From IMG/VR virus record IMGVR_UViG_3300006919_000037: a stretch of 64,000 nt of DNA; one strand, 5' to 3'. Shown here piece after piece: positions 43,525-60,423 of this stretch. How positions within the stretch are numbered: position 1 is the first letter of the stretch; every line of letters starts with the position of its first letter. The position numbers and the translations under genes were made by a program. Source of the stretch: a virus. Lineage: Duplodnaviria; Heunggongvirae; Uroviricota; Caudoviricetes. The notes below the pieces were generated by a model, which was given only the letters and a program-made list of their open reading frames with translations, was not told the DNA's origin and did no database searches.

Positions 43525-43539
43525 ATAATTCTTCTACAT

Positions 43540-44092: not shown

Positions 44093-44105
44093 TTTTCCTT
44101 TTTTC

Positions 44106-44369: not shown

Positions 44370-44375
44370 AGAATT

Positions 44376-45140: not shown

Positions 45141-45232
45141 ATAATTTGGTCAACACCAACTCAGTTAAAACAGATCAACCCTCTAGGGATATCTTTCAGT
45201 AATACCGGTTAACTAGATGCAAACCAAATAAT

Positions 45233-45308: not shown

Positions 45309-45353
45309 ATTGTTATTCATCTATATATAGAGACACAACATGTTTGTCAAGAA

Positions 45354-45854
45354 CTATTTAGGCAAAATTTCATAGGGATCGATAGTCTGTATCTTCAGCT
45401 TCGGTATTTTATCACCCGTCCCATCCAGTTCCAAACCCAACAGGACACCAAAACCCTTCATCTTCTTCTTCATGGCTTCCCTAAGTTCCTTGGCACTTTC
45501 TTTCGTATATGGGATTTCATAAGCCCGTGGCTTACTGTTGAAATTCAGGTGCAACAGTTCTTCTACACGTGTGGTTTCACGATCTGGATCATAGACCCAC
45601 ACATAAATCAACCCATCCGGGTTTTTGGGTGTAGGGTCCTTGATAGAAGCCCATATCATTGAATTGTCTTTACCCATCACGGCTGTTGTGGGGAAACCCC
45701 TGTATGTCATCAGTGACCAGTAATTCCCCGTAGCAGCCACAATAAGCAGCACACCCAGCATGATAACATGGGTTGACATCCTACCCACCATGATCATCCA
45801 AAGAATGAACAAGGCTATGAACGAGAAGAATATCACCATCAAAAAATCGATCAT
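45354..45854 (-). CDS. membrane protein (two N-terminal TM helices plus soluble domain), third gene of the TolQ/TolR-like module
   Basis: MIDFLMVIFFSFIALFILWMIMV and VIMLGVLLIVAATG hydrophobic helices. Confidence 0.4.
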   Translation of the reverse strand: MIDFLMVIFFSFIALFILWMIMVGRMSTHVIMLGVLLIVAATGNYWSLMTYRGFPTTAVMGKDNSMIWASIKDPTPKNPDGLIYVWVYDPDRETTRVEELLHLNFNSKPRAYEIPYTKESAKELREAMKKKMKGFGVLLGLELDGTGDKIPKLKIQTIDPYEILPK

Positions 45855-46498
45855 CGTAATGTCTCCCCGGCTCCAAGCTTCACTATTGGTATGAAATCAT
45901 CACCCTGATTGACAAAGAATCCGTCATTATCCAACCTGAACCTGACAAAGGTTTTTTCCTGCCATGTCATCTCGAAAACCTTTTTAACCATATGGACAAT
46001 CCTATACCGGTTTATTTTAACCACTCTCAGTTTAACCGGCACGGTAATCGGTACACCAGTTTGATAGGCATTTGATCCGTTACATTTATACAGATGTCCA
46101 TTAACAATGTATTCACCGGGGACCATCCCTCTCAGTGTCCACACCTCACGATTTTCTTCACCTTGAATTTTTCTTTTACTTCCAGATGGACTAAACGTAT
46201 CAGTTCTGATTCCCTGATCATCCCGTTCCAGATGCATGTATTTGTTGTTGAGGTACAGGAAATGGATCGGCTTCCCTTTGTCGGGACCCTGCACCCATAA
46301 GTCAACATCACAATCGATATCATCCGGCCATTCCATCTCAATGAAATACTCAGCACGTTTGATGATGTTGCCCTCATCTTTGGATATTGGATTGATCAAC
46401 AGAATAGCCAGAACGAACGATACAATGACCATGAACAGGACAGTGAACAACATGTCTGAAAATATGTTGCTGGCCCCAGTCTCTTTACTCAACTTCAT
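45851..46498 (-). CDS. ExbD/TolR-like protein (N-terminal single TM) with C-terminal extension
   Basis: N-terminal NIFSDMLFTVLFMVIVSFVLAILL resembles ExbD/TolR N-I-x-P-x-I/V-D-V-x-L-V-L-L-I-I-F-M; start overlaps stop of TolQ-like gene. Confidence 0.4.
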   Translation of the reverse strand: MKLSKETGASNIFSDMLFTVLFMVIVSFVLAILLINPISKDEGNIIKRAEYFIEMEWPDDIDCDVDLWVQGPDKGKPIHFLYLNNKYMHLERDDQGIRTDTFSPSGSKRKIQGEENREVWTLRGMVPGEYIVNGHLYKCNGSNAYQTGVPITVPVKLRVVKINRYRIVHMVKKVFEMTWQEKTFVRFRLDNDGFFVNQGDDFIPIVKLGAGETLR

Positions 46499-46949
46499 GG
46501 GAATGCACCATGTTCATTACTACCAATTGCCCCTTGAGTAACAGACTGGTTATCAACCCAACAATAGTTGTCAGAAGAGCCGTTGATAGTGCTAGGAAGA
46601 TATTCTGCATCATCTCAATAATCTCTGTCTGCTCATTTGGATCGATCTTGATTGTGGATATGGACTCCACTGATATCATCAACCCAATCACCGTCCCCAA
46701 CAACCCAAGTGCTGGTAGATGGTTTGCAATGAACATCTGCAACTCAAAGACATCATCACTATTTTTCCCTGATCTAATCTCAAAAAAGAAAGATAGAAGG
46801 GTTGCCATATAGACAACCCCGATAAGGAATGAAATATAAGTGATGTCTTTGGAAGCTATCCATGAGTATATGTCAAAATAACCTAACCAGAAGATTGCTA
46901 GAAGATTGGAAATACTGAACAATACAAAGAATATTGTAGATTTTGTCAT
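46485..46949 (-). CDS. MotA/TolQ/ExbB-family proton-channel protein (minimal, 154 aa)
   Basis: LPALGLLGTVIGLM matches the conserved P-x-x-GLLGTV-x-G-M motif of TolQ/ExbB/MotA; followed by ALSTALLTTIVGLITSLL helix; two N-terminal TM helices. Confidence 0.6.
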   Translation of the reverse strand: MTKSTIFFVLFSISNLLAIFWLGYFDIYSWIASKDITYISFLIGVVYMATLLSFFFEIRSGKNSDDVFELQMFIANHLPALGLLGTVIGLMISVESISTIKIDPNEQTEIIEMMQNIFLALSTALLTTIVGLITSLLLKGQLVVMNMVHSHEVE

Positions 46950-46954
46950 CTTTA

Positions 46955-48040
46955 TTATTCCACTTCTCTTATTCCTATACCCAGTGAGTTATCTTCATAT
47001 AAGGGTAATGTACTTATCAAATAGTCGGCACATCTACTTATAGATTCCCGAACCTTCACCTTGGCTTTCCAACCAAGCTTATGTTTGATATTCTCAACAG
47101 CCGGTACTCTGTATTTAACATCATCCGGATAGGACTTTGAAGTATTGAATTCTAGTGGTGGAAAACTAGGTGGTAGATAACCCTTCTCCATTCCAACCTC
47201 ACGAATAATCATAGCCAATTCTCTCATGGTGATTGGCTCTTGGTTACCAATATTCATGGCCGTGTTTGTAGGATGCTCCAGAGTATCGATAATTGGTTCA
47301 ATCACATCATCAATCCATGTGAAGCACCGGACTTGATTTCCATCACCTATAATGTCAAGACGGTGCTCTCTATTCATCAAGATCGTGTTAAAGAAATCAG
47401 CAAACACGTGGGAATCACCCAATGATTCCCCAGCAGTTTCATATGGTGTTATGATATTGAATGGTCTCCAGATAGAATACGGTAAAGCATATTGCTTATT
47501 GTATGCCCTGACCATTCTTTCGTTCACCACCTTACTCAAACCATAATCAGTCTTTGGAATGGGTGGATGTATGTTACTGCCCTTGTAATCATACATGTGG
47601 GATTCATGTGAAGGAATGAGTCCAATAGATACACTCTCATAAACCATAGACGATGAGATGAAAACGAAGTTCTCAACATCTGTGCATGTGGCAGCAGCTT
47701 CCAAACAGTTTGCATTGATAGCTGTGTCACGACCCAAAATATCAGCAGCAAATCTATTGAAGCCCCCAACACCGTAAATGGTTGCAGCACCCTGAATGAT
47801 AACATCCGGCTGGTATGCTGTGAACAGGTCCATAACGACTCTACGATTTGTCAGGTCTGCTTCCATGAACAAACAGTCATCATCTGTCAGGTTCTGATTA
47901 CGTCTACCGTGCCGGGACAGATTGTCGATCCCCATGATATGGTAGTCTGTCTTGAACCATCCAAGGGTTTTGATGATGTGACTCATCAAACTGCCATCAG
48001 AGCCACACACTATAATTTTTTTCATGTCTATTCTTTCCAT
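46955..48040 (-). CDS. NAD-dependent sugar epimerase/dehydratase (SDR family)
   Basis: Rossmann IIVCGSDGSLMSHI and catalytic YGLSK (YxxxK); start set at MERIDM (48040; an alternative ATG lies at 48025); ORF-track start 48094 overlaps the upstream gene. Confidence 0.7.
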   Translation of the reverse strand: MERIDMKKIIVCGSDGSLMSHIIKTLGWFKTDYHIMGIDNLSRHGRRNQNLTDDDCLFMEADLTNRRVVMDLFTAYQPDVIIQGAATIYGVGGFNRFAADILGRDTAINANCLEAAATCTDVENFVFISSSMVYESVSIGLIPSHESHMYDYKGSNIHPPIPKTDYGLSKVVNERMVRAYNKQYALPYSIWRPFNIITPYETAGESLGDSHVFADFFNTILMNREHRLDIIGDGNQVRCFTWIDDVIEPIIDTLEHPTNTAMNIGNQEPITMRELAMIIREVGMEKGYLPPSFPPLEFNTSKSYPDDVKYRVPAVENIKHKLGWKAKVKVRESISRCADYLISTLPLYEDNSLGIGIREVE

Positions 48041-49299
48041 GGATTGTATGTAATCACACCGGGTGACATCATCGGCAAGTGCCACTGGAACCATTCTTTA
48101 TCGAATACCTTGTGTGGTGTCATAACCACAACAGCATCCACACCACTCACCAGAAGATGTGTACGAGCTTGGATCATTCCTTCAACATATGGGTCATACA
48201 TGGTCACTTTCAAGCCGTGCCTCTTACAAATCTTCTTGAATTTGTATGATAGTGAGTTTCGAATATCATCAGACTCAGCCTTGAAAGCAGCACCAAGAAT
48301 CAAAACCCGGTCAATAGTTTTTCCAACACGTGCAGCCTTGATCATCATCTGATCATAAACAAATTCCGGCATACTCTCATTGATATGGAAAGCTGTGCTT
48401 ATCAGTTCAGGGAAAGCAAATTTTGTAGTAAGGAATTTACCATCCTTGAATAGGCACGGCCCACCCACGTTTGGTCCCGGCTTGGGAACATCAAGTCTTT
48501 CATACCCCTCATTGAAGTCCTCAATCATCTCAAATGCATCAACGTCATATTGCTTACACACCATGTACATTTCGTTGGCAAATGCAAAATTCACATAACG
48601 GTACATATTGGTCATCAGCTTGCCGATTTCAGCAGCTTCATATGGCATGAATTTATACACAACCCCAAGAGTTTTGATGAACTCCCAAAGTTTGGCATGA
48701 ACACCCACACCCTCTTCATCAGGATCGACCCCAATCATCCAATGGTGTTTGGTAGTCTCCACCAACCCCTTACCCTGTGCAACACGTTCTGGGATGAAGT
48801 AAACGTCTACCCGGTTTTTGATCTGTAACATTGGCACACCACCATAGTAGTTGATCTTATTGAACAGCCGTTTTTTGAAAAGACGTGTAGTGCCGGGTGC
48901 AACTGTCGATCTTAGTATTATGGCCTTGGTCCCACCAGACTTGATGTTTTCGGCAATGGCTGTTCCAATTGTGTCGGCCAACTCCATGATGTCATCAATA
49001 CGTGGGTTACCTTCATCATCAACCGGTGTACCGATCATGATAGCAATAATATCAGACTTTTTGAGAGAGTCGTATTCGGTTGTGAAGAACAGGTTGCTTC
49101 CAACATACTTTTTAAGCTGTTCCTGACCACCTTCTTCAATGAAAGGCATCTCACCCCGGTTCAACTGACTGACCCGTTCCTGAGACAGGTCTATTCCATA
49201 CACAATGTTATCTGGACGTGAGCACACCAGTGAGAACGGAATCCCCACATGACCACCAGCCCCAATTATAGATACAATCATAATCTTTTTTCTCTCCAA
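48028..49299 (-). CDS. UDP-glucose/GDP-mannose dehydrogenase family protein
   Basis: N-terminal Rossmann SIIGAGGHVG and GGPCLFKDG (family GG-x-C-x-x-KD motif); likely true start MIVSIIG at 49281. Confidence 0.75.
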   Translation of the reverse strand: MERKKIMIVSIIGAGGHVGIPFSLVCSRPDNIVYGIDLSQERVSQLNRGEMPFIEEGGQEQLKKYVGSNLFFTTEYDSLKKSDIIAIMIGTPVDDEGNPRIDDIMELADTIGTAIAENIKSGGTKAIILRSTVAPGTTRLFKKRLFNKINYYGGVPMLQIKNRVDVYFIPERVAQGKGLVETTKHHWMIGVDPDEEGVGVHAKLWEFIKTLGVVYKFMPYEAAEIGKLMTNMYRYVNFAFANEMYMVCKQYDVDAFEMIEDFNEGYERLDVPKPGPNVGGPCLFKDGKFLTTKFAFPELISTAFHINESMPEFVYDQMMIKAARVGKTIDRVLILGAAFKAESDDIRNSLSYKFKKICKRHGLKVTMYDPYVEGMIQARTHLLVSGVDAVVVMTPHKVFDKEWFQWHLPMMSPGVITYNPWKE

Positions 49300-49751
49300 C
49301 GTTCAGGGTAATCTGTGCACACACCACCAATATTTGTGTAAAAATCCTGATCAAAGTCAGAAGCTGAGTTTTCAGGCAGTGCTAATATCGTCATATTTGT
49401 GTAACCCTTCCCCGTAGAATGGGCAAGTGGATGCATCCATACCCAACCCCATGATGTTAGGGTGTAATCATCAGTATCATGCCAAAAATAGTGGGCATCT
49501 TTGTTTGAGAGGAAACCCAATGCTTCAACATTCTTGGCATGTAGAATCACCTGATACTTGATCTGGGCAAGGAAATCCCAAGAAACCTTATGTTCCGGAA
49601 AGTCATGGCCAAGCCAACATTCACCCTCTACATACCAAAAATCAATCTCTACATTAAATTGAGCAGATATTGCTTTGTTGATTTGGCTTGGATGATTTTC
49701 CCATTGTCTGTTTGACCCATCCAGATTTCCACGATGGCTGTATATCTTCAT
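49278..49751 (-). CDS. glycerophosphodiester phosphodiesterase-like (GDPD family) protein
   Basis: IYSHRGN at N-terminus and EIDFWYVEGECWLGHD (GDPD HR-x-E-x-D-H pattern). Confidence 0.5.
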   Translation of the reverse strand: MKIYSHRGNLDGSNRQWENHPSQINKAISAQFNVEIDFWYVEGECWLGHDFPEHKVSWDFLAQIKYQVILHAKNVEALGFLSNKDAHYFWHDTDDYTLTSWGWVWMHPLAHSTGKGYTNMTILALPENSASDFDQDFYTNIGGVCTDYPERWREKRL

Positions 49752-50350
49752 CTATAAAACTCCACATTACATTCCTTACCCACGTCATCCGGTTTTACAT
49801 CATACTTGAACCCACAGAAGTCCAAGTATTTCGTAACATTAGACAGATTGTTGCCCGTACCCTGATACAGTTCAACCGTGTAAGCACATTCCAGCCGACC
49901 GGCTTTTAGATCGTTTATGTAATGGCCCATAGATAGCAGCACATTGTAATCATTACCTTGTGCATCAATCCACATGTAGTCAATATCACCCTCTATTTTG
50001 AACACTTCAATGAACGTCTCCAATCTCATACACGGTACAGGATAGGAATGAGTCATCTTGAAGTCTGACCGGTTTTCCCACTTCTCGTGGATTTTCTCAT
50101 CAAACTCATAAAGACTAGAACAGCCCCAGTCACCCTGACCGGCAATATTGAACGTCTTGAAACCATCCTCAATATCAACAGCCATTGGGATGATATTGAC
50201 TCGTGGGTCATTGAATTTGGGCCACAATGCTTGGGATACCAATTCCCGTGTGGGTTCAAATCCGTAATATGTGTGTGTCGGGTATTTGTCCAGTAACGGC
50301 TGTGTGTCTGAGCCGGTGTTAACACCAATCTCGAATATGTTTTTAGTCAT
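49748..50350 (-). CDS. FkbM-family SAM-dependent methyltransferase
   Basis: IFEIGVNTG at trimmed N-terminus, GFEPT and MWIDAQGNDYNVL; start moved to ATG 50350 (8-nt overlap with MazG-like gene). Confidence 0.5.
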   Translation of the reverse strand: MTKNIFEIGVNTGSDTQPLLDKYPTHTYYGFEPTRELVSQALWPKFNDPRVNIIPMAVDIEDGFKTFNIAGQGDWGCSSLYEFDEKIHEKWENRSDFKMTHSYPVPCMRLETFIEVFKIEGDIDYMWIDAQGNDYNVLLSMGHYINDLKAGRLECAYTVELYQGTGNNLSNVTKYLDFCGFKYDVKPDDVGKECNVEFYR

Positions 50351-50681
50351 CCACGACATCCTCTGGCTTACTTGATTGCATAAACTTCTCAAGCTTTATA
50401 ATTTTCTTTTCAATCTGATTTTCTACTATTGCTGCATTTATCAAATCCACATCCGGTTCCAGAGACATTGTGATAACAGCCATCAAATCACCCAATTCAA
50501 TAGACAGACGTTCCCGGTTCGTATGTGGTTGGCCGGGTTGAACTTCGTGTATACCAAATCTCAACATCTTGGTAGCACGTTGCTGCACTTCAGCAGCTTC
50601 TTCAATAAGGATGGTTAGAAGCTCACGTTCATATGGTGTTGGTAGTGGTTCTGGTGTTACAAATTTTTCAGTCATGTTCAA
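50343..50681 (-). CDS. MazG-like nucleotide pyrophosphohydrolase (small all-alpha NTP-PPase)
   Basis: LIEEAAEVQQ and ELGDLMAVI helices carrying the E-x-x-E / D metal-binding pattern. Confidence 0.55.
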   Translation of the reverse strand: MNMTEKFVTPEPLPTPYERELLTILIEEAAEVQQRATKMLRFGIHEVQPGQPHTNRERLSIELGDLMAVITMSLEPDVDLINAAIVENQIEKKIIKLEKFMQSSKPEDVVDD

Positions 50682-50730
50682 TCCTATACATAAAGGTGGG
50701 CCGGGTTTTCGTCAATCATAGCTTCATCAT

Positions 50731-52116
50731 CTAATTATCCCTCAAGAACGTGTTTAGGTCTTCCGGAGTACCAATCCCCCACATACGGTCTATCTGCTTG
50801 ACACGGACCTTCTTACCGGCTTCTATGGCTTGATTAAAGACAGGGCACACATAGAACTCACCATTGGTCCGGATATCCTTCTCAATCATCTGTTCAGCAA
50901 ACTTCACATAGTCCTTACCATGTGACCAATAATACAAACCAACTGTTGCATTGTCAGATATTGGTTGCTTCTCAGCCACCTCTGATACGAATCCATCATC
51001 ACCCACCTTGGCATATGACCATTTTGGATGTGTTGATTTGAATGTCAGTATCCCGGCATCAATCCCATCAGCCTTGAATGCATACATACATTCATTGGAA
51101 TCCCACTCTATATACTGGTCTGAGTTACAGATCAATAGTGGATTTGAGTTGTTGATCAGGTTCTTGGCCAACAGAGTCGTGCAGGCAGCACCCTCAGTCA
51201 CCCCATCAACCTGAATTATCTCACAACCCGGTGTGATCAATTCCAACATGTATTTGAGATTGTATTTCTTGTAGTGTTCCTTCTGGACAATGTAGATAAA
51301 ATTGGCCTCAATGTTAAGGTTCTCCACAACCAACTGGATCATTGGTTTACCTTTGACCTCAATCAATGGCTTTGGAAACGTGTAACCGGCATCAGCAAAT
51401 CTGGAACCGGCTCCGGCCATGGGGATCAACACGTTCAGCTTATTGTCATTCCATTTCATTTTGATCTGTCCACTCTGCTTCATGTCGAGCCATTCCATCT
51501 GACTCATGATTTTCTCACGTGTCAAATCACGTGGGTCCTCAACTTCCAGAAGATGTGCACCGGAAGCCACTGCACCTTCACGACCGATATGAGAATCCTC
51601 AACGATAATTGTAGATGCTGGAATTGCATTACATTCTATCATACACTTCCAGTACATGTCAGGATATGGCTTCGATCTTTCCACATCCTGATTAGATACC
51701 ATATAGTCAAAGTATTCCAGAATTCCAAGAGACTTCAGGGAAGTTTCAACCGTTTCACGGATTGCATTTGAAGCACATGCCAGTTTGTAGCCGTTCAGCT
51801 TTATCCAGCTACACAACCCGATCAGATACAGGTTCTTCTTGGTCTTGTTCAGTAGAAATTCCTTGGTGTAATGTTGTTTACTTCTCCATATATGACCATG
51901 ATAATGTTCTGGCAGATTCTTCTCATCTGTCAACATCTTCAGTTTTCTGGATGTGGATAAACCGTCATAACGTGATAGATGCTCTTCACGAGTAATAACA
52001 AAGTCATCAGCTATCTCAGCTAGAGCCATGTTCAGGGTTTCGTAGTGGATTTCACGTGAGTCTATCAACACCCCATCAAGATCGAATATGATAAGCTTGT
52101 TGTATGTGTTAATCAA
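50731..52116 (-). CDS. bifunctional HAD phosphatase/phosphomutase - sugar-1-phosphate nucleotidyltransferase
   Basis: N-terminal HAD motifs IIFDLDGVLIDS, CASNA, SKPYPDMY, EDSHIG; C-terminal LIPMAGAGSRF and PKPLIEVKGKPMI (G-x-G-x-R and KPM NTP-transferase signature). Confidence 0.7.
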   Translation of the reverse strand: MINTYNKLIIFDLDGVLIDSREIHYETLNMALAEIADDFVITREEHLSRYDGLSTSRKLKMLTDEKNLPEHYHGHIWRSKQHYTKEFLLNKTKKNLYLIGLCSWIKLNGYKLACASNAIRETVETSLKSLGILEYFDYMVSNQDVERSKPYPDMYWKCMIECNAIPASTIIVEDSHIGREGAVASGAHLLEVEDPRDLTREKIMSQMEWLDMKQSGQIKMKWNDNKLNVLIPMAGAGSRFADAGYTFPKPLIEVKGKPMIQLVVENLNIEANFIYIVQKEHYKKYNLKYMLELITPGCEIIQVDGVTEGAACTTLLAKNLINNSNPLLICNSDQYIEWDSNECMYAFKADGIDAGILTFKSTHPKWSYAKVGDDGFVSEVAEKQPISDNATVGLYYWSHGKDYVKFAEQMIEKDIRTNGEFYVCPVFNQAIEAGKKVRVKQIDRMWGIGTPEDLNTFLRDN

Positions 52117-52810
52117 ATGTTTTCACCTCTACACATCTCAGATCATCAAAAACTGCAACACAAAGCTTACCACCAAACACAGCACCCCCATCAATATTAA
52201 GACGACCCTCATCAACCCTCAACTCACCATCCTTTGATAAAAACGTTTGTATAATCACACGATGATACGGCTCCTTGCTGATCGGTGTGTGACCATGGAC
52301 AACAACAGCACCCGGAACCGGCACATTCATGTAGTTTCTGGACCACAGCATTGTATCCTTCTGTTCTGGTGTATTTTCACCCTCAAGATACACTGGCAGG
52401 AAATTGGAATGAACACAGATCACTTCATGGTTGTCACCAAACGTGACATAGTATGGAAGGTTTTTCATCCATACAACATCCGATAGGAAAGCTTCCCTCT
52501 CAGCTTTAGAATCTGTATACAATTGCTGATATGAGAATAGAGTTTCCCTACCCCCATTCATCATCCATGAGTCTTCCAACCCACTATCCCACATGAACAT
52601 TTCATGATTACCCATCACGACATGCTTGGTTCCCACCGGCTCCCACTCACGTACCGACTTTACAACCAATGCAGATTCCGGACCACGATCAATCAGATCA
52701 CCCAGAAACACCACATGGTCTTCAGGCTCCATCTGTGTCTCTATCCATTCACGTGCTTTCATATACACGTTAAACATTCCGTGTATGTCACCTATAGCAA
52801 ATATTTTCAT
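52109..52810 (-). CDS. Ser/Thr-phosphatase-type metallophosphoesterase (lambda-PPase/ApaH-like)
   Basis: IFAIGDIHG, VFLGDLIDRG, GNHE and VHGH motifs. Confidence 0.7.
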   Translation of the reverse strand: MKIFAIGDIHGMFNVYMKAREWIETQMEPEDHVVFLGDLIDRGPESALVVKSVREWEPVGTKHVVMGNHEMFMWDSGLEDSWMMNGGRETLFSYQQLYTDSKAEREAFLSDVVWMKNLPYYVTFGDNHEVICVHSNFLPVYLEGENTPEQKDTMLWSRNYMNVPVPGAVVVHGHTPISKEPYHRVIIQTFLSKDGELRVDEGRLNIDGGAVFGGKLCVAVFDDLRCVEVKTFD

Positions 52811-53628
52811 GAGTATTTTTTACCTTCTGGAACTGGTATGCATATAAACATATCCCTCATTGCATTCAACCCTTCTTGTGGCATTTCATACAAGTGCCAC
52901 TTATTGGGTTTCAACAACTTCGTGTATGTGTCCATACACAACCCTATCTTGATCCGGGCACCACGAAGTCTCTGGGACCACTCGATATCCTCTTCATCAC
53001 CCCAACATCTGGATTCATCCAATGGAATTGCTTGAAGAACTTCTATGTTTGCAGTGATCATCCCACCGGAGATGTATTGCATGTTTGTCATGTCTTGAAC
53101 TTCATACGGCACACCACAGACATACTTTGGATCATTTTCATTGGGTGCAACCTGCATGAAAAGGTTTCTCAGTTGTGGTTGACGTTCCAACATAGCCGTA
53201 ACGAATCTCTGATCCAACAACCAGTCTGAATGTCTCTCACCTTCCATGGTGTATATTGGATTGACCACGACTTGGATGTGATCGTTATCATCCCACCATT
53301 TTAATATCTTATCAACCCAATCCGGTTGAAATTCATAATAGTCATGGACCAGACACACTTTGTCAAATCCATACTCATGGGCCACGTTGACCAGAAGATT
53401 CTTCTTCTGTGTGATCCAACCCTTTCGTGGTTCATCATAATAATATGGATAGAACGAACCCATATGCTTCGATTGATCGATCAGTTCCCTATAACCAATC
53501 ACAGCCACCATACCATGAGGCATATCAAATTGACTAATAGCCGACCCGATACATTTATCAAGTGTCTCTATGTCCGTTGTCGGACCTGCACAAATTCCAA
53601 TAAACATATCACCACTTCCTCTTGTCAA
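52807..53628 (-). CDS. hypothetical protein in glycan island
   Basis: 273-aa ORF, no motif recognised. Confidence 0.4.
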   Translation of the reverse strand: MTRGSGDMFIGICAGPTTDIETLDKCIGSAISQFDMPHGMVAVIGYRELIDQSKHMGSFYPYYYDEPRKGWITQKKNLLVNVAHEYGFDKVCLVHDYYEFQPDWVDKILKWWDDNDHIQVVVNPIYTMEGERHSDWLLDQRFVTAMLERQPQLRNLFMQVAPNENDPKYVCGVPYEVQDMTNMQYISGGMITANIEVLQAIPLDESRCWGDEEDIEWSQRLRGARIKIGLCMDTYTKLLKPNKWHLYEMPQEGLNAMRDMFICIPVPEGKKYS

Positions 53629-54646
53629 GTTCGATCAGGACATCTTCGATATCATCAACCGTGCAACCTATCGAATGGTTCTGAACCACATACCGATAAC
53701 CTTCATATTCGTTGAAATAATTATCCATACCCACACAGTTCCACCAGTCTCTGTCATCATCCTGATATACATACTCAATAAATTCCATCAACTCAGGTTC
53801 TGAGTCATACACGAATCCATGCTTCTGAAGTTTGAGAGCACCCGGTGTTTTACGAGCAAACCATGGCACACTATGATACATAGCCTCAAGCAGAACCAAC
53901 CCAAACCCTTCTTCATAGGAATTTAGTATATAACCATTGGATTTGTGGATGGCCCACTGAACTTCATCAAATTCTGCATCCGTGATCACCCGTACTTGAT
54001 CAGTTTGTTGTGGTGCATTCTCAGGCATACCATATCCATAGAGTACCAGTTTAGCATCAATAGGAGAAAAGTTCCAAGCATCAGCTAATTCCGTCATAGC
54101 CTTGTGTGGATAAAAACCACCAGCCGAAACGAAGTATGGCACATCCTCTTTCACAAAATCACGATTCATATAAGCTTCAGGTGCTGATATAGCATCACCC
54201 ATTTTGATACCATGTCTGACTCTTCTTGCCTTGTCGAGATACCCGGCATTGGCAATATGATTCAGATCAGCCACGGTGGAGTATCCAAGGAAATCTGAAA
54301 ACCTCATCCCATGCATACATATATCAGAGTTTGACGGCTTGATGATCATGTACAGGATTGGTGACCGGATGTTGAATGAGTGTTGGTGGACAATGTTCTG
54401 CATATGGACATCACCACCATGGACCACAATAAGGTCCCACTGACGGTTTAACGTCTCAGTAGGGTTATCCACCACCCACACACCATTATGCTTACCCTGA
54501 ACGGCCCTATGCTCTCCTGTGAGCACTGTAACCGTGTGGCCACGTGCCAGAGCTTCTTCAGCCATTTGTTGTGTGTAATATTCAGAACCACCCGGAAATG
54601 GAGCATACCGGTGGACTACAAACAGGATATTTTTTGGAGTGTTCAT
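53609..54646 (-). CDS. glycosyltransferase family 1 (GT4-like, GT-B fold)
   Basis: C-terminal E-x7-E region GFGLVLLEAMYHSVPWFARK; N-terminal ILFVVHRYAPFPGGSE. Confidence 0.7.
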   Translation of the reverse strand: MNTPKNILFVVHRYAPFPGGSEYYTQQMAEEALARGHTVTVLTGEHRAVQGKHNGVWVVDNPTETLNRQWDLIVVHGGDVHMQNIVHQHSFNIRSPILYMIIKPSNSDICMHGMRFSDFLGYSTVADLNHIANAGYLDKARRVRHGIKMGDAISAPEAYMNRDFVKEDVPYFVSAGGFYPHKAMTELADAWNFSPIDAKLVLYGYGMPENAPQQTDQVRVITDAEFDEVQWAIHKSNGYILNSYEEGFGLVLLEAMYHSVPWFARKTPGALKLQKHGFVYDSEPELMEFIEYVYQDDDRDWWNCVGMDNYFNEYEGYRYVVQNHSIGCTVDDIEDVLIELDKRKW

Positions 54647-54909
54647 TTATTGTACCACATCACATGGGTTGTACCCTCTGGAATCTGTCCAGTCAGGACC
54701 TTCGACGGCATGGCAGCACCATGGATGACATCAGACATACCTACCAATTGATCACCAATTACCCACTGTCCATGTCCATCATAATCAACGAAAGCACCTT
54801 CTTCACATGCATCTGTGAAATCTTCAATAGTCATAAACATGCTATCAAACTCATCACCCCAAAATTCACGGGCTTCTGAAACAGTTTCTCTATAGCTCAT
54901 ATCCACCAT
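54643..54909 (-). CDS. hypothetical acidic protein
   Basis: 88-aa ORF. Confidence 0.35.
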   Translation of the reverse strand: MVDMSYRETVSEAREFWGDEFDSMFMTIEDFTDACEEGAFVDYDGHGQWVIGDQLVGMSDVIHGAAMPSKVLTGQIPEGTTHVMWYNK

Positions 54910-55357
54910 CCTCTGGTTTTACACCAAAATGATACCAGTCTTTCTGTTCAGCCGGTCTCATATTGTCAAATTCTGTGTCGGCATCCACATCACCACAATA
55001 ATCGGTTGAGTAGACCATATAAAGACCTTCTATCACATAGAAGCCTTCCTTGATTCCGTCTTCTAACACACCTTCGACTGTATAGTCAAGCCCCGGCCCA
55101 TAATTATCTTCATAATCAGCACCACCACCTTCATATGCATAGATATCGACAGTTGGTCTATCCCTATGATCCTCATGAAGAACCCGGAAGAGAACAGTGG
55201 ATTTCTCAGATGGATTTGGACAATCATTATCCTCATCAGGCAGTGCTTTTATGTAATCCACAAGATCAAGCTGAAATTCAGTCATTGATAATCTCCACCA
55301 TCCTGTAATCTGTTGTTGTTTTTGTGTATGGAACAACACGGGCAAAGGTAAACTCAC
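54890..55357 (-). CDS. hypothetical acidic protein
   Basis: 155-aa ORF. Confidence 0.35.
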   Translation of the reverse strand: MSLPLPVLFHTQKQQQITGWWRLSMTEFQLDLVDYIKALPDEDNDCPNPSEKSTVLFRVLHEDHRDRPTVDIYAYEGGGADYEDNYGPGLDYTVEGVLEDGIKEGFYVIEGLYMVYSTDYCGDVDADTEFDNMRPAEQKDWYHFGVKPEDGGYEL

Positions 55358-55580
55358 CCTGATTCACAAGATCAGACATCACAGACGGCACACCACTACT
55401 GGTCCATTCCATAACATAGAACAGACCTCTAATCAGGTAAACCTCACGGATTTTCTCCCGACCATCATCTGTCATAAACCGTGACACGGATATGACCTTC
55501 TCTACTAGAAGATCATCAAGCCACATATCAACGAATTCTGCTTTGGTAACCATTTTCATATCCTCATCCATAATGCACAA
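55278..55580 (-). CDS. hypothetical protein
   Basis: 100-aa ORF. Confidence 0.35.
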   Translation of the reverse strand: MCIMDEDMKMVTKAEFVDMWLDDLLVEKVISVSRFMTDDGREKIREVYLIRGLFYVMEWTSSGVPSVMSDLVNQGEFTFARVVPYTKTTTDYRMVEIIND

Positions 55581-56484
55581 ACGTCTCCCACCAATCTAGG
55601 AAGTTATCGGTATTCACACAAGCTGGTGGGACGTTATTTTTCCACACGGGTTGATTTACCATCTTCAACCACTTGCTTCTATCGGAATCAATTTCCTTGA
55701 CCACCTCAACAACCTCATTGAAATTGGTGTAGTCATGGACATTGATAAATCTGTCTGGATTGAAGTCACGGTGGACAAACGAGCTACCGAAATAAATTGG
55801 AATCACCCCTGCATATAGAGCATCCAGAATCTTCTCAGTGACATAACCGGGATATGTACCATTCTCAAATGCTATATTGAATTTACGTTGCTTTACGAAA
55901 TCCATCTTGTGACGTGGGTCATCACGTGGCAGGACATATCCAATATTATTGAACAAGGGTCCACCACAATCAACCTGTTTGTATTTACTCAATGTCTCAA
56001 CAAAATGATTCCGGATAGGCTGGTTTGGGTTGGACTGGACAAACGTACAGAACCCGGACGGCACATCAGCATCAGTTTTGCTCAACAAACTATTCAGGTG
56101 TAGAACATCACTCGTAACACCCTCTGCCTTGTACATATGCATCTCTGGTACGTATAGAGGCAGTCTGTAATGCTTTGGTGAGTTCTCATGGTCAAACGTT
56201 ATGGCCCTGTCATAGGTCCAGTAATTTGGACGGAAATTCTCACCCGTGTACAGGATACGGACACAGTTCTGATACTTGTAGTGTTCTTCACCAAAATTCG
56301 GATCACCGAAAATCAGATAGTCACACTCTTCGGGTTTGACTACTTCAACATGATATCTCTCACCCAACACACCAGTGAAGAATTTTTCAGCCGTGCCGAA
56401 TGTTGACGAAAATCCAAGTCTAAGTTTTTTCATAGTTTCATTTTCTATCCATATGTTTTGAATATTCAAGCACTCGTTTATCAT
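55564..56484 (-). CDS. alpha-1,3-fucosyltransferase-like glycosyltransferase (GT10)
   Basis: KFNIAFENGTYPGYVTEKILDALYAGVIPIYFGS...RDFNPDRFINVHDY closely matches the GT10 FucT signature (F-x-[LV]-x-FENS-x4-Y-x-TEK ... IP-[IV]-[VY]-x-G). Confidence 0.8.
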   Translation of the reverse strand: MINECLNIQNIWIENETMKKLRLGFSSTFGTAEKFFTGVLGERYHVEVVKPEECDYLIFGDPNFGEEHYKYQNCVRILYTGENFRPNYWTYDRAITFDHENSPKHYRLPLYVPEMHMYKAEGVTSDVLHLNSLLSKTDADVPSGFCTFVQSNPNQPIRNHFVETLSKYKQVDCGGPLFNNIGYVLPRDDPRHKMDFVKQRKFNIAFENGTYPGYVTEKILDALYAGVIPIYFGSSFVHRDFNPDRFINVHDYTNFNEVVEVVKEIDSDRSKWLKMVNQPVWKNNVPPACVNTDNFLDWWETFVHYG

Positions 56485-56615
56485 GTTTGTAGAAGTATTT
56501 CAACCAGATTTTCTTGGAAAACTTACTTACCTTGTAATATCCTTGATAGATAAAGCCGAAATAGTACAGTAATAGAATATAGAGGTTTATCATATAACCC
56601 CTTGGTGTTCGATCA

Positions 56616-57581
56616 TTACTTAACATAAGCCACCAGAATATCAGCACTTATTTCACCATCAACTGTCTCATAGGTGAAATTCGGATTGATTTCCTTGAGG
56701 ATGGTAAGAGCCTGTTCTTCCGTGACTCCGTTCCATTCAGCAGAACCAAACAGTCTTCTGTCATCTATTATTATTGTACTGTTTGGATCATAATGCTCTT
56801 TAATGGCACGAAGTTCTGATAGAATAGGTGTCCCACCATCCTCACCACCGGGCAGGGGTCCAGATGCATGTGCATCAAGCCAGAACGTGGCTAATGGCTT
56901 TGGATTATCTTCCGGCATAGATATAGCAATCTCTTTAATCCACTTTGGACTGTCACCACAATAGACCATAGCCTCTCTTTCGAACATGATTGCTGCACGT
57001 TCAGCCAGATCATCATCCAGTTCTATTGAGTATATTTCCTTGAACATTTCTGAAGCCACGGCAACCTTTATCCCAAGGCCGAAATACGTTCCAGTCTCAA
57101 TGAAAATATCACCCCTGCCATATTCTTTCAACATACCAACAGTGATATGACATGAATCTGGAGTAGGTTCAGGGATTTTTTCATAGGTTCTTTTCTGGGC
57201 TTCTTCCATCTGCATGGCAATATCCTCATCAACGAAATTCATATCATCGGTTGGCTTGTACCAGAACCAGATATCACCCTCAAGTGTGTGGACCAGAGGT
57301 GTGTGTGAATTCTCCATTCTCCATTGAAAAACTTTCTCATGGTTTACATCATAGAGAAACACCATCCCACCCGGTTGAAGCAGATCATACTCAACAGAGA
57401 AATCCTCATCCATCAGATCACCCTTCCAGATCAATATTGTAGGGTCTCCAACAACATCAGGCTGGACCTCAAGCTTCTTCAACTTCTTCAGCTTATACGG
57501 TTTCAGAATATCCTTATGAACCTTAAATACGGGCTTCTTCTGTCTTTCGATATACACCCATGCCTGACCCAGTTCTTTCAT
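56616..57581 (-). CDS. class I SAM-dependent methyltransferase (TylF/FkbM-like O-methyltransferase)
   Basis: IFIETGTYFGLG glycine-rich SAM motif and acidic SIELDDD motif II. Confidence 0.5.
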   Translation of the reverse strand: MKELGQAWVYIERQKKPVFKVHKDILKPYKLKKLKKLEVQPDVVGDPTILIWKGDLMDEDFSVEYDLLQPGGMVFLYDVNHEKVFQWRMENSHTPLVHTLEGDIWFWYKPTDDMNFVDEDIAMQMEEAQKRTYEKIPEPTPDSCHITVGMLKEYGRGDIFIETGTYFGLGIKVAVASEMFKEIYSIELDDDLAERAAIMFEREAMVYCGDSPKWIKEIAISMPEDNPKPLATFWLDAHASGPLPGGEDGGTPILSELRAIKEHYDPNSTIIIDDRRLFGSAEWNGVTEEQALTILKEINPNFTYETVDGEISADILVAYVK

Positions 57582-58456
57582 TACTCAGTTTCCCTGTATT
57601 TTTTATCCATGACCTTGTTCCATTCCGGCACCCGATCATATTGGTGTACGATTGCATATGGCTTGCCTTGTGTATTCATGACCTGCTCACCATCCCACAC
57701 AGGTTCAGTAGACACAAGATTATCTCTGAATTCTTCAATCTTGGATGGATCAGCCGTTGTTCCAGCCTGACATGCCCAAGCATTCTCATCAGCAACGATA
57801 TAGTTATTGAACAGTGGTGCTACAATGTTATAAGCAGCCTGATCTGGGCCACCCCCACCCGGCACATGATATGGTGCACCACGAGATGTTAGGAAGATAT
57901 GAAGGAACAAGTCCAACATTGTCCTACCGTCACCATAGATCACACCAGCATTGATAATTTCCTTGTTGGAAAATTTATCGGCAATGGGTGGACCAAATGA
58001 TTGTGTGATATTATTCCAACCCCACGGCTCATCCTTATACAACAAACCCTCACCAGATGATAGGATTTTAGTATCTTTCGGCAAACCATCCGGATCGTTA
58101 TATATTTCCTTGGCTCGTTCAAATGGATCAGACTGGAATACAACATCCTTGACATCACATGCCAGAATGTTTGCAACAGGAATATCCTTCAGGAATGCCC
58201 AATAGTGATAGAAACGGTCAACACAGATGTTAAAGGTGTCTACGTTCTGATAGGTCACCCCATCACCATCTTCAGCCTTCTGGTGACCAAACAGGGTCCA
58301 CCCCCGGTCTTCAAGCTTGTCAATCAAAGCCTGCTTGGCTGTATAGATTATCATGCACTTGTGGCCATCAAACCCTGTATTCTCCAATGATACGACAAAA
58401 GGCTCGACATCCTTCCACTCGTATCCATGTATTGCTCCAATTACTAGATTTTTCAT
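57581..58456 (-). CDS. hypothetical protein in glycan island (possible glycosyltransferase)
   Basis: 291-aa ORF, no motif recognised. Confidence 0.35.
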   Translation of the reverse strand: MKNLVIGAIHGYEWKDVEPFVVSLENTGFDGHKCMIIYTAKQALIDKLEDRGWTLFGHQKAEDGDGVTYQNVDTFNICVDRFYHYWAFLKDIPVANILACDVKDVVFQSDPFERAKEIYNDPDGLPKDTKILSSGEGLLYKDEPWGWNNITQSFGPPIADKFSNKEIINAGVIYGDGRTMLDLFLHIFLTSRGAPYHVPGGGGPDQAAYNIVAPLFNNYIVADENAWACQAGTTADPSKIEEFRDNLVSTEPVWDGEQVMNTQGKPYAIVHQYDRVPEWNKVMDKKYRETE

Positions 58457-59175
58457 GTCAAATTTTCTCCAAGATTCATAATCCTATTTCCAACTTCAAA
58501 GAATTTCTTTGTCACGGAATTTTGATTGCCAGCTAATCTATATCTTAATGTGTGTAGATTGGTTGCAACCCTCTTATGATCAAGAGTGTTCCGTAAGAAT
58601 TCCCGATCACCACCCCATTCAGCATCCCATAGATATGAGAACCTACGAATATAATCAACCCTGAAACAATATGATGATGTATCGATCAGATAACCGTTTT
58701 TCTTATCACCATAGATTGGTTCTGGATATATGGATTCACATAAGTCCAGAATAACCTCATCACCATCTTCATCAATGATCTGTCTTTTGGAGTGTGACAT
58801 CCATGCATCAGGTTCAGCCTCAAGAGCCTTGACACATTCTTCTACATGGTCCGGTGCATACTCATTATCCTCATCAAGAAAAAACACATACTTGAATCGT
58901 GATGTGGGTATCAACTTTGGAACTGCTGCATACACTCTATGACCATACCAGTTTCCATCATCTTTACCGACATTCCATGGAAGCATGAGAAGATGATCCA
59001 TATTGGTAAAACCCTGTGCCAGTGCTCGTTTGTTGTACCGGGCAACATGCTCTTGACCATCAACAACCATCAGATGGTGCACATGACCATATGACTGCTC
59101 TCTGACCGACCGTCTACAATCCTCAAAGTGATCCCCCACAACCGTAGGGGTTATCACCAATACCGGGCTACTCAT
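58453..59175 (-). CDS. glycosyltransferase family 2-like (GT-A fold)
   Basis: N-terminal VLVITPTVVGDH...DCRRSVREQSY and FLDEDNEY (D-x-D-like) motif. Confidence 0.55.
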   Translation of the reverse strand: MSSPVLVITPTVVGDHFEDCRRSVREQSYGHVHHLMVVDGQEHVARYNKRALAQGFTNMDHLLMLPWNVGKDDGNWYGHRVYAAVPKLIPTSRFKYVFFLDEDNEYAPDHVEECVKALEAEPDAWMSHSKRQIIDEDGDEVILDLCESIYPEPIYGDKKNGYLIDTSSYCFRVDYIRRFSYLWDAEWGGDREFLRNTLDHKRVATNLHTLRYRLAGNQNSVTKKFFEVGNRIMNLGENLT

Positions 59176-59771
59176 TTATTATCCAGACATACTTGGTATC
59201 TGTCCCATGCATCTGCTGATCCATCCATCCGAAGCTTCCACATGAGTTTAGTAGCACCCAGAAACGGGATGGTGGATTCCCAAGCTTCAACTTCCAGTTC
59301 ATCGGCATTTCTGAAAAGGCTGATACGTTCATCTGTAGCATCAGCTACCAAGTTTCTGAGACCTTCCTGCAAATTAAGAAAGATGACAACCTGTTTATCA
59401 CCCTTCCGGAATACCAACCAACCACTGTCAAGATCGGGGTGACCCATAATGTCAACAACAAACTTACCATTCTTGATGGTCACCTTTGTGTTGTTCTTGT
59501 GGAAGAGCACACATGTTCCATAATAGTTCTCTACCTTCCAGTCACCTTCAACAACCGGCTCTGGTGCTGGTGTAGGTTCTACTGGAACCGGCTCTGGTGT
59601 GGCTTCAGGACCGGGTACAACCGGCTCTGTTACTGGTGCTGGAATAGCTGTGCTGGAAACTTCAGTATCTGGTCCACCCCCAAGGGTTGCCAAGTAGTAT
59701 ACACTCCAAATGGCTATTAACAGACCAACTCCAATTGCAATCAATGTCTTTTTACCTGTTGTCATGATCAT
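59172..59771 (-). CDS. membrane-anchored Pro-rich protein
   Basis: N-terminal TM helix LIAIGVGLLIAIWSVYYLA then Pro/Glu/Val/Thr-rich linker and globular C-terminus. Confidence 0.4.
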   Translation of the reverse strand: MIMTTGKKTLIAIGVGLLIAIWSVYYLATLGGGPDTEVSSTAIPAPVTEPVVPGPEATPEPVPVEPTPAPEPVVEGDWKVENYYGTCVLFHKNNTKVTIKNGKFVVDIMGHPDLDSGWLVFRKGDKQVVIFLNLQEGLRNLVADATDERISLFRNADELEVEAWESTIPFLGATKLMWKLRMDGSADAWDRYQVCLDNK

Positions 59772-60310
59772 TTATCTCCTGTTGATCCTAATCCACCAGC
59801 ATCACCCAACACACGATCAGTCTTCTGACCCGGTGGTTCTTTCAAATGTTTGAGTTTATAATCTTCACTCTTGACCAGTTCTATCTGACACAACCGTTCA
59901 CCACGTTCAATGTCAACACCAGATACATCATCTGAGCTATTCATCATCAGTGGCATGTAGAGTTGGCCGGTATAGTCCCAGTCAATAATCCCCGTGCTGT
60001 GTGCTAGACACAACCCCTTCTTGATCCCCGTAGAGGACCTGACATGTACTTTGAGATGGTAACCTTCTGGGATATCAAAAATCAGACCAGTGGGCACTAG
60101 AATTCGATCACCGGGCATGAACCTCAAGGTATTACCCCTAAGTTCCCGTTCCATGGGTGAGTTATGCTTATCGTAATACTGTATTACACCATCTGTTGTC
60201 TGGAATGCCACGTCGAAACATGCAGCCCCCAGTGTAGACTTTTTAGGTCCTTCAAAAGACTGGTCAAGCTTATATATTCCCAATTTGGGGAGATTTGCAT
60301 TTTTTTCCAT
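59768..60310 (-). CDS. dut: dUTPase
   Basis: five motifs in order: AACFDVA, RSSTGIKKGL, GIIDWDYTG, GERLCQIEL, GGLGSTG (matches R-G-x-GGFGSTG). Confidence 0.8.
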   Translation of the reverse strand: MEKNANLPKLGIYKLDQSFEGPKKSTLGAACFDVAFQTTDGVIQYYDKHNSPMERELRGNTLRFMPGDRILVPTGLIFDIPEGYHLKVHVRSSTGIKKGLCLAHSTGIIDWDYTGQLYMPLMMNSSDDVSGVDIERGERLCQIELVKSEDYKLKHLKEPPGQKTDRVLGDAGGLGSTGDK

Positions 60311-60423
60311 AATATCCTCAATGTTATTTCAATAAAATTTGGCCGGGATGAAGAAGCTTCCACCCGTTTTCAATCATCCTATCAACTTCTTTCAGTGCCT
60401 CTACCGTTTCCGGTGAAAGCTCA

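Follow-up and report, generated by a model that had tools for sequence, protein, structure and literature searches.

Gene clusters for glycan synthesis are among the largest unexplained gene sets of marine T4-like phages. Those of the cyanomyoviruses S-SSM7, S-CAM9, B3, S-SCSM1 and S-SCSM2R combine several glycosyltransferase (GT) families with epimerases for nucleoside diphosphate (NDP)-sugars; S-SCSM2R carries 13 GTs, including a GT10 enzyme, and S-SCSM1 has several fucosyltransferases (PMC9602691, PMC12801897). Pelagimyophages also carry many GTs, together with UDP-sugar dehydrogenase or rfaE-type genes that have been read as serving O-chain modification (Zaragoza-Solas et al. 2020, PMC7029224). 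Clusters of both groups have been interpreted, without experiments, as modifying the host surface (PMC9602691, PMC7029224, PMC12801897). Here we describe a related block of genes in IMGVR_UViG_3300006919_000037, a 64,000-nucleotide stretch of DNA from an uncultured T4-like phage (hereafter the window). The block, at positions 46955–59175 (12.2 kb), comprises 18 minus-strand genes located between regA/dUTPase and a tRNA cluster. We read it as a single functional unit that assembles a methylated oligosaccharide, using donors made in part by the phage itself; our tentative choice of acceptor is a host envelope glycan, to which we assign a probability of about 0.38.

The block is another member of the described class, found in a new lineage; what is new is a core module, its synteny and two GTs assigned by structure. 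It shares with marine T4-like glycan or lipopolysaccharide (LPS)-like clusters a T4-like backbone, several GTs (five in this case), NDP-sugar enzymes and orthologous genes. A comparison with the LPS-like clusters of cyanomyoviruses and pelagimyoviruses, which an earlier note on this DNA had proposed, revealed that a HAD-nucleotidyltransferase fusion and its 157-aa partner are common to the block, B3 and S-CAM9. The fusion is 60–62% identical to genes in GT-rich islands of B3, S-CAM9 and S-PRM1, and tblastn located GT10-like genes in S-SKS1, S-T4 and S-SSM7. For the GT4 enzyme and a 273-aa GT of the block, a comparison with two cyanophage islands yielded no match. The source phage differs from cyanomyoviruses in that its DNA polymerase is at most 40% identical to theirs. 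In addition, cyanomyovirus clusters have been published as hypervariable, whereas the present block shows conserved synteny within its lineage. Pelagimyophages place some GT genes in the structural or host-recognition region, as do two related genomes described below (L014 and L018), but GT8 enzymes dominate in those phages. The present genes instead lie in the replication module and include a GT10 enzyme, an N-acetylhexosamine (HexNAc)-type dehydrogenase and two methyltransferases.

Conservation of the glycan gene block

Neighbouring genes of the block overlap by 1–11 nt or abut by 1–2 nt, and the sole gaps are 182 bp before the GT10 gene and 55 bp before the MazG-like gene. These observations agree with the contiguous, co-oriented run of genes described in the earlier note. 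Its placement of this run between dUTPase/regA and the tRNA cluster likewise holds, with three membrane-protein genes intervening on the tRNA side. The block and its flanks contain the following features.

43369–45308: tRNA cluster (13 tRNA genes in the window)
45354–46949, minus strand: ExbB/TolQ/MotA-like channel protein (154 aa; Pfam MotA_ExbB, E 7e-9) and two membrane proteins (215 and 166 aa; hydropathy)
46955–48094, minus strand: extended short-chain dehydrogenase/reductase (SDR), 356–379 aa, probable nucleotide-sugar C4-epimerase (Pfam Epimerase, E 2.8e-34)
48028–49299, minus strand: NDP-sugar 6-dehydrogenase, 417–423 aa, catalytic Cys in GGPCLFKD (three UDPG_MGDP_dh domains)
49278–49751, minus strand: 157-aa protein with a GDPD-like HRG/EN/ExD/HD motif (phrog_34507, E 4e-28)
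49748–50392, minus strand: FkbM-family S-adenosylmethionine (SAM) methyltransferase (Pfam FkbM/Methyltransf_21, E 2e-15)
50343–50681, minus strand: MazG-like NTP pyrophosphatase, 112 aa (phrog_4856, E 2e-18)
50731–52116, minus strand: HAD (beta-phosphoglucomutase-family)–sugar-1-phosphate nucleotidyltransferase fusion, 461 aa (Pfam HAD_2, E 3.9e-28, and NTP_transferase, E 3.2e-12)
52109–52810, minus strand: PPP-family (lambda/NinI-like) phosphatase, 233 aa (Pfam Metallophos, E 6.8e-17; phrog_246, E 3e-46)
52807–53628, minus strand: GT-A fold (GT2-like) glycosyltransferase, 266–273 aa (structure prediction; previously unannotated)
53609–54646, minus strand: GT4-type (GT-B) glycosyltransferase, 345 aa, with an EX7E motif (Pfam Glycos_transf_1, E 4e-10)
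54643–55580, minus strand: three small acidic open reading frames (ORFs) of 88, 155 and 100 aa, with no Pfam matches
55564–56484, minus strand: GT10 alpha-1,3/4-fucosyltransferase-type protein, 289–306 aa, catalytic core only (Pfam FucT_N and Glyco_transf_10)
56616–57581, minus strand: 321-aa protein; N-terminal half uncharacterised, C-terminal half probably a Methyltransf_24/YrrM-like O-methyltransferase
57581–58456, minus strand: GT-A fold glycosyltransferase, 291 aa, retaining GT8/PLOD-like (structure prediction)
58453–59175, minus strand: GT2-type glycosyltransferase, 240 aa, with a DED motif (Pfam Glycos_transf_2, E 1.3e-5)
59172–59771, minus strand: 199-aa protein with an N-terminal membrane helix (hydropathy peak at residues 8–31), a Pro-rich spacer and a C-terminal domain
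59768–60310: dUTPase (dUTPase/DCD-like; family match)
60424–60918: RegA (family match)

In a second phage genome, L011/L019 (JGI Ga0612052_0208, 163.7 kb; L019 below), 16 genes of the block and the three downstream membrane genes are present in the same order at 40–69% identity. Values for individual proteins include 69% for the fusion, 67% for GT10, 56% for both GT4 and the 291-aa GT, 44% for the GT2-type enzyme and 40% for the phosphatase. Two of the small ORFs are also retained (155-aa, 56%; 88-aa, 52%), the 100-aa ORF was not found there, the MazG-like gene has no counterpart at its position, and a class I methyltransferase replaces FkbM. The identities within the block are no lower than those of the neighbouring replication genes of L019 (gp45, 38%; gp44, 44%; gp62, 45%; regA, 65%; dUTPase, 52%). 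The word 'island' used in the earlier note implies insertion and does not fit a block that is kept gene for gene in a related phage at such identities; by this comparison, the block is not a recent insert.

Parts of the block recur in more distant genomes. A third T4-like lineage, L017, carries a collinear core composed of the 291-aa GT, Methyltransf_24, GT4, a 273-aa-like GT, the HAD-nucleotidyltransferase fusion and FkbM. In L014 and L018, the 291-aa GT, FkbM and GT4 are grouped with other GTs immediately after gp15, within the structural module, and in L014, L015 and L018 the 291-aa GT lies inside the virion module, after gp15 and near gp13 and gp18. In L012, the 291-aa GT is accompanied by an SDR, Methyltransf_24, GT90, FkbM, a dehydrogenase and UDP-galactopyranose mutase. 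FkbM genes thus occur in the same module in L012, L014, L017 and L018. As judged from homology and gene order, a small collinear core (291-aa GT-A, GT4, 273-aa GT-A, the fusion, and FkbM or another methyltransferase) is common to three T4-like lineages and is partly present in two more. The overlapping genes, the 16-gene order in L019, the recurrent core, the domain fusions and the exchange of FkbM for another methyltransferase mark the block as a single functional unit.

Two additional observations were made in these genomes. A GIY-YIG homing endonuclease gene (L017, 11050–11643) lies inside the core module between the 273-aa-like GT and the fusion. On the 512-kb contig L015 (16463–19818), T4-like structural genes and the 291-aa GT adjoin FadB-/FadA-like beta-oxidation genes, which points either to a chimeric assembly or to a phage of unusual size that carries fatty-acid genes.

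Predicted sugar-donor and transfer enzymes

The HAD-nucleotidyltransferase fusion proposed in the earlier note is confirmed, since both Pfam domains reside in one protein. Its PDB matches are 4evw and beta-phosphoglucomutase, the other half being a hexose-1-phosphate nucleotidyltransferase, and this arrangement is consistent with a mutase-then-pyrophosphorylase route from hexose-6-phosphate to NDP-hexose. Full-length orthologues in L019, L017 and the cyanomyoviruses B3, S-CAM9 and S-PRM1 span 59–69% identity. Because the nucleotidyltransferase half matches phrog_3980 (E 1e-75), kinship with AfhE of RB69 and DLP3 was suspected; this was rejected when tblastn traced the orthologues to cyanomyoviruses and found none in RB69 or DLP3. 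The nucleotidyltransferase may be fed by a second protein, encoded between gene 43 and uvsX in the slot that gene 42 and beta-gt occupy in T4.

13727–14260, minus strand: mannose-6-phosphate-isomerase-type cupin, 177 aa (Pfam MannoseP_isomer, E 1.9e-18; NCBIfam GMP_PMI C-terminal region, E 2.4e-18)

The dehydrogenase had been named a UDP-sugar 6-dehydrogenase (Ugd). Assignment as an NDP-sugar dehydrogenase is well founded, given its three-domain architecture, its catalytic Cys and its score against NCBIfam TIGR03026 (246 bits, cut-off 189.8). The name Ugd does not stand, because the protein falls below the cut-offs of the Ugd (125 of 670 bits), TuaD (86 of 700) and AglM (42 of 757) equivalogs. 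Its nearest structures are the UDP-N-acetylmannosamine (UDP-ManNAc) dehydrogenase 4r16 (E 3e-40), Cap5O and 3g79, with UDP-glucose dehydrogenases far lower, which places it nearest to UDP-ManNAc and UDP-N-acetylgalactosamine (UDP-GalNAc) dehydrogenases.

Membership of the adjacent protein in the SDR epimerase/dehydratase family is borne out by a Pfam Epimerase match that covers the entire profile (1–240 of 240) and by a Ser...YxxxK catalytic set (SSSMVY and YGLSK). It reaches no NCBIfam equivalog (Fcl, 86.7 of 500 bits; UXS-type, 82.6 of 294). Candidate roles as GDP-mannose 3,5-epimerase (GME) or GDP-fucose synthase were rejected, because in alignments the position of the GME catalytic Cys145 is occupied by Met and the scores are far under the cut-offs. 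The protein also lacks the decarboxylase Glu of UXS and ArnA, which we take to be part of an STSEVYG motif. With neither the 3,5-epimerase Cys nor this Glu, and with no equivalog reached, the most economical reading is that the SDR is probably a C4-epimerase acting on a HexNAc-uronic acid. The pairing of the two genes, which resembles the TviB/TviC and WbpO/WbpP pairs in placing a UDP-ManNAc/GalNAc-type dehydrogenase beside an SDR, suggests production of a HexNAc-uronic acid and its C4 epimer. Unlike those pairs, the phage enzymes reach no equivalog cut-off, and their substrate and reaction are assigned by analogy.

The earlier note envisaged an activated, probably uronic acid- or deoxyhexose-containing, methylated and fucosylated glycan. 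A methylated uronic-acid glycan, possibly fucosylated, is a fair reading of the gene set; no finding speaks for the deoxyhexose branch. The block contains no protein that reaches an equivalog cut-off for a 4,6-dehydratase or for GDP-fucose synthase, so GDP-fucose for the GT10 enzyme is not visibly phage-made.

The block encodes five glycosyltransferases: two GT2-like enzymes, one GT8/PLOD-like GT-A enzyme, one GT4 and one GT10. Three had been claimed, and the GT2, GT10 and Glycos_transf_1 assignments are supported by Pfam, the last being a GT4-type enzyme. The count rises to five with the GT-A folds predicted for the 291-aa and 273-aa proteins. The 240-aa GT2-type protein scores just above the gathering cut-off (25.6 bits against 23.3) and has weak NCBIfam matches to AglG and TuaG; its L019 orthologue occupies the same position. 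The GT4 protein also matches Glyco_trans_1_4 (E 8e-10) and is 41–44% identical to proteins in L014, L017 and L018. Some of the 953 representative relatives of the 273-aa GT are fused to GT4, GT2, GT10, HAD plus NTP_transferase, FkbM or TylF domains.

Both domains of the GT10 protein exceed their gathering thresholds (FucT_N, E 1.7e-18; Glyco_transf_10, E 5.3e-19) and align with Helicobacter pylori FucT (5zoi and 2nzw, E 1e-45). Segments FNIAFENGTYPGYVTEK and LYTGENFRPN correspond to FNLCFENTQGYGYVTEK and FYTGENESPN of 5zoi, the FxxxFEN(S)xxxxYxTEK motif is recognisable, and both the catalytic Glu of the N-domain (YTGEN) and FEN...YVTEK are conserved. The motif that the earlier note had described as near-perfect FENS-x4-Y-x-TEK reads FENGTYPGYVTEK, or FEN-G-x4-Y-x-TEK, and so differs by one change from S to G; the family assignment itself is sound. 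Helicobacter pylori FucT carries C-terminal heptad repeats and membrane-anchoring helices, and the phage protein, which consists of the core only, lacks both. We therefore call it a putative fucosyltransferase, with the donor GDP-fucose assumed from the family.

The 291-aa GT was previously unannotated, and no other gene of the module is shared as widely. The family of this protein has no Pfam model and comprises at least 2826 metagenomic members, several of them on phage-sized contigs, and among cultured phages only one weak match was found. Fold neighbours, at 10–17% identity, include LH3, Mimivirus R699, GlyE, UGGT, Skp1 AgtA, glycogenin and PBCV-1 A64R; R699 is a collagen glucosyltransferase (PMC9546862). 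The LPS enzymes LgtC and WbbM score as well in this comparison as the protein-glycan enzymes. Sequence searches of the PDB with the 291-, 321-, 215- and 199-aa proteins returned nothing useful.

Two SAM methyltransferases had been proposed. The FkbM-family enzyme is secure by its Pfam match, and the second, in the 321-aa protein, is indicated by a marginal Methyltransf_24 match (E 0.13, profile positions 1–104 of 105) together with an annotated homologue. Its C-terminal ~180 aa are 45–50% identical to a family of ~185-aa proteins, one of which (P0189) has PF01596/PF13578 (Methyltransf_3/24).

Among the remaining genes, the PPP-family phosphatase of the earlier note is upheld by its Metallophos match. 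The MazG-like assignment is a weaker one, drawn mainly from phrog_4856 ('nucleoside triphosphate pyrophosphohydrolase'), with the Pfam MazG model falling below gathering (15.6 against 22 bits, E 0.02). Both genes are probably passengers that lie outside the glycan pathway. For the 157-aa protein, the GDPD-like motif reported in the earlier note is present and its residues (H5, R6, E17, N18, E34, D36, H48 and D49) are invariant across three homologues, so the phosphodiesterase call is one made from the motif. Domain similarity is not significant, with no Pfam match up to E 10 and a three-sequence profile that reaches the HRG-motif region of 7wwc in the PDB at E 0.13. The cyanophages B3 and S-CAM9 and the genome L019 each carry this gene as well as the fusion. 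The 88-aa ORF matches phrog_14149 (E 1e-11).

The acceptor of the glycan

Hydropathy analysis revealed no hydrophobic segments in the block enzymes, all of which are soluble, and no Pfam family corresponding to an initiating phosphoglycosyl transferase, a flippase or ABC transporter, a polymerase or a ligase occurs in the block. It is therefore not a complete Wzx/Wzy- or ABC-dependent surface-polysaccharide locus and could not produce a surface polymer by itself, and the chain must be added to an existing acceptor. The earlier note left this acceptor open among LPS or capsule, virion protein and DNA, and was right to do so.

We favour the following scheme, in which the glycan is assembled in the cytoplasm. 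The fusion would convert a hexose phosphate, perhaps supplied by the cupin, to NDP-hexose, and the dehydrogenase and SDR would convert a UDP-HexNAc-type sugar to its uronic acid and probably then to the C4 epimer. Chain extension would fall to the five soluble GTs, whose folds and families are established and whose order and linkages are conjectural. GDP-fucose for GT10 would come from the host, and the FkbM-type and Methyltransf_24-type enzymes presumably O-methylate the chain. In the least secure step, the acceptor would be a host envelope glycoconjugate intermediate (a precursor of LPS, capsule or exopolysaccharide) at the inner face of the membrane. The surface of the infected cell might thereby be altered, for example blocking adsorption by the same or competing phages.

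Several lines of evidence point to an envelope target. Distant bacterial relatives of the 291-aa GT (23–29% identity), from Brevundimonas, Dyella, Desulfovibrio, Mucilaginibacter and Prosthecobacter, adjoin genes for GT2, GT4, Wzy_C, Acyl_transf_3, DegT and lipid A acyltransferase, a composition typical of surface polysaccharide loci. Among solved structures, those nearest to the GT10, dehydrogenase and GT4 proteins are enzymes of LPS, capsule and teichuronic acid, which suggests the same destination, and the published interpretations of cyanomyovirus and pelagimyophage clusters set a precedent for it. Membrane proteins, including the ExbB/TolQ-like channel, bracket the conserved block. Its timing also fits: the block is part of the early/middle replication module, with no T4-type late-promoter motif (ATAAATA is absent from the block, and promoter, terminator and late-promoter scans gave counts at chance level).

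Other findings weigh against this assignment. To our knowledge, the phage O-antigen modifications that have been demonstrated all use membrane proteins (Gtr-type enzymes and acetyltransferases), whereas the enzymes of the block are soluble. A host-specific acceptor predicts variability, yet T4-like lineages with replication proteins only ~40% identical have the core in common. Named bacterial genes are absent from the 120 closest homologues listed for the 291-aa GT (of at least 2826); these are metagenomic proteins without names, and several lie on contigs of phage size. Ancestry of sugar enzymes in bacterial polysaccharide loci is expected for any acceptor. No NCBIfam equivalog cut-off pins the substrates of the fusion, dehydrogenase or SDR, and the 84 kb read for pathway genes, out of a genome of ~162 kb, contained no GDP-fucose route.

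A somewhat less probable alternative is that the glycan is built in the cytoplasm on phage structural proteins (capsid decoration proteins, fibres or other exposed proteins), altering the virion surface or recognition. Virion glycosylation is known in mycobacteriophages and giant viruses. Like the mycobacteriophage, PBCV-1 and Mimivirus systems, the block has soluble GTs and sugar methyltransferases, and no lipid-carrier, flippase or polymerase step; giant viruses also synthesise their own nucleotide sugars. The likeness to PBCV-1 and Mimivirus is at the fold level only. Sets of GTs and methyltransferases have been demonstrated for mycobacteriophage virion glycans, according to the account of Freeman 2023 in PMC12801897. 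A phage-borne acceptor would suit a module that is a lineage core, with identities no lower than those of replication genes, and that is common to divergent T4-like lineages. It would likewise suit the metagenomic, partly phage-sized setting of the closest homologues listed for the 291-aa GT, its position in the virion module of L014, L015 and L018, and the protein-glycan enzymes among its top folds. Such likeness does not identify acceptors, however, given the equal scores of LgtC and WbbM, and the bacterial relatives reside in polysaccharide loci. The block is also grouped with early/middle replication genes and carries no late-promoter motif, no acceptor protein was identified, and we know of no report of a glycosylated T4-like virion. 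A collagen-like acceptor, prompted by the LH3 and R699 folds, was considered and rejected because the large proteins of the window contain no Gly-X-Y runs.

Considered more broadly, phage-autonomous glycosylation, in which the acceptor travels with the phage as virion protein or, less likely, DNA, also remains below even odds and is rather improbable. The 291-aa GT-A would then be the conserved founding enzyme, with lineage-specific GT10, GT2, GT90 and GT92 enzymes diversifying the outer glycan. If a phage-borne acceptor proved true, many uncultured marine T4-like phages would have glycosylated particles, a trait so far unrecognised, and the default reading of such clusters as 'host LPS modification' would be overturned. 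The block offers a short list of soluble enzymes, expressible and assayable, with which envelope, virion and DNA acceptors could be separated.

It is unlikely that the stretch has no single product and is instead a plastic collection of unrelated auxiliary genes, each acting separately on host metabolism. The phosphatase and the MazG-like protein have no obvious role in glycan synthesis, neither the three small ORFs nor half of the 321-aa protein has an explanation, and the MazG-like gene, FkbM and the 100-aa ORF differ between the source phage and L019. Furthermore, T4-like genomes have hyperplastic regions between core genes (PMC7029224). These features contrast with the conserved order of 16 genes that overlap or abut, the same core set in other lineages, domain fusions that join the families, and the displacement of FkbM in L019 by a non-orthologous methyltransferase.

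Still less probable is DNA hypermodification, in which the GTs would place an oligosaccharide on a hydroxylated pyrimidine and the MazG-like enzyme would exclude the canonical dNTP. DNA glycosylation is common among T4-like phages, and sugar decoration of pyrimidines is known in T-even phages, RB69/DLP3 and Pootjesviridae. The arabinosyl-5hoC clusters of RB69 and DLP3 bring together a MazG-like dCTPase, a HAD phosphatase, a nucleotidyltransferase fusion and GT-B glycosyltransferases, and oligosaccharides on DNA exist (PMC13326640). The block shares with them a MazG-like pyrophosphatase, a HAD domain, a nucleotidyltransferase fused to a second domain, and GT-B enzymes. In the source phage, a MazG-like gene in the block, the adjacent dUTPase/DCD-like gene and a DNMK-like kinase upstream of gp45 would be in keeping with such a role, as would UDP-galactopyranose mutase in the related L012 module, which is also found in RL38J1. 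However, the block differs from the RB69/DLP3 clusters in that no ThyA-type hydroxylase, sugar kinase or arabinose-5-phosphate isomerase was seen and the domain fused to the nucleotidyltransferase is HAD, not a kinase. No Thymidylat_synt match occurs in 55 other ORFs of the window (E<=1e-4) or in precomputed Pfam annotations of the flanking loci (84 kb read in all), and the enzymes seen, ThyX and dCMP deaminase, belong to the canonical dTMP route. The cupin, and not gene 42/beta-gt, lies between gene 43 and uvsX, the fusion has its orthologues in cyanomyoviruses and not in RB69 or DLP3, and the MazG-like gene is missing from the syntenic L019. We know of no precedent on DNA for GT10, GT2-like or GT8-like enzymes or sugar O-methyltransferases.

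Host contamination or an assembly chimera, which the earlier note had named as grounds for refuting its proposal, is excluded by ENA, JGI and Logan assemblies that are 99.99% identical across both block junctions, by uniform composition (GC content of 0.42–0.43, like the remainder of the window; tetranucleotide correlation of 0.93 with the rest, against 0.927–0.973 for other 12-kb segments) and by synteny in a second phage genome.

Block edges and the surrounding phage genome

The three downstream membrane genes are packed against the SDR gene, with gaps of 5, -14 and -4 nt, and are kept in the same order in L019 at 42–44% identity. The channel protein is followed first by the 215-aa and then by the 166-aa protein. 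At the other edge, the gene for the 199-aa protein overlaps the GT2 gene by 4 nt; this protein has no family or PDB match. By eye, the segment 'SDMLFTVLFMV' of the single-helix 215-aa protein resembles the Asp-containing helix of ExbD/TolR, and the architecture of the 199-aa protein is TonB/TolA-like. A phage Ton/Tol-like set may thus bracket the glycan genes.

The window is part of ENA contig k141_939537 (ERZ27275032; 161,830 bp), which is also assembled as JGI Ga0208767_1000001 (161,726 bp) and in a Logan run. A megablast search of the block against 50,697 phage records found no cultured phage with a near-identical block, and IMG/VR scans with the GT10, ExbB-like and dUTPase proteins found zero relatives or only two distant ones. 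An Rfam scan of 43000–62000 detected only tRNAs. Nearly all genes of the window are on the minus strand, and its T4-like backbone includes the following.

9658–11073: gp41 helicase (family match)
12552–13661: UvsX (family match)
15709–17262 and 14612–15712, minus strand: gp43 DNA polymerase, a split gene pair encoding 517 and 366 aa (family match)
60911–61306: gp62 clamp loader (family match)
61832–62794: gp44 clamp loader (family match)
62766–63440: gene upstream of gp44, gp45 clamp by position only (no family match)

A split gp43 is also present in some other T4-like phages.

Additional genes of the phage lie apart from the glycan block. Outside the window, the same contig (L005 493–3808; L008 17292–19895) encodes NAMPT and an NMNAT/Nudix protein for NAD salvage, as well as a second GalE-like SDR, ThyX and a class II ribonucleotide reductase. 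Within the window, the minus-strand genes at 11599–12318, 17852–18271, 21221–21607, 30062–30661 and 31023–32443 jointly encode a dCMP deaminase, a SpeD-like AdoMet decarboxylase, a SLOG/YAcAr protein, an HNH endonuclease, a glucosaminidase and a Band_7 protein; ATAAATA lies 19 nt upstream of the glucosaminidase gene. A 198-aa protein (7733–8329, minus strand) with an N-terminal DxDGVL HAD motif appears by eye to be 5'(3')-deoxyribonucleotidase-like and has no Pfam match at E 1e-4. Three large, highly charged, low-complexity proteins of 508, 705 and 823 aa (438–7319, minus strand), which have no family matches, might serve as internal proteins or be injected. In the largest, of 823 aa, the C-terminal half is basic, rich in Ser, Thr and Pro, and internally repetitive, and it lies in a stretch of locally high GC content (0.47).

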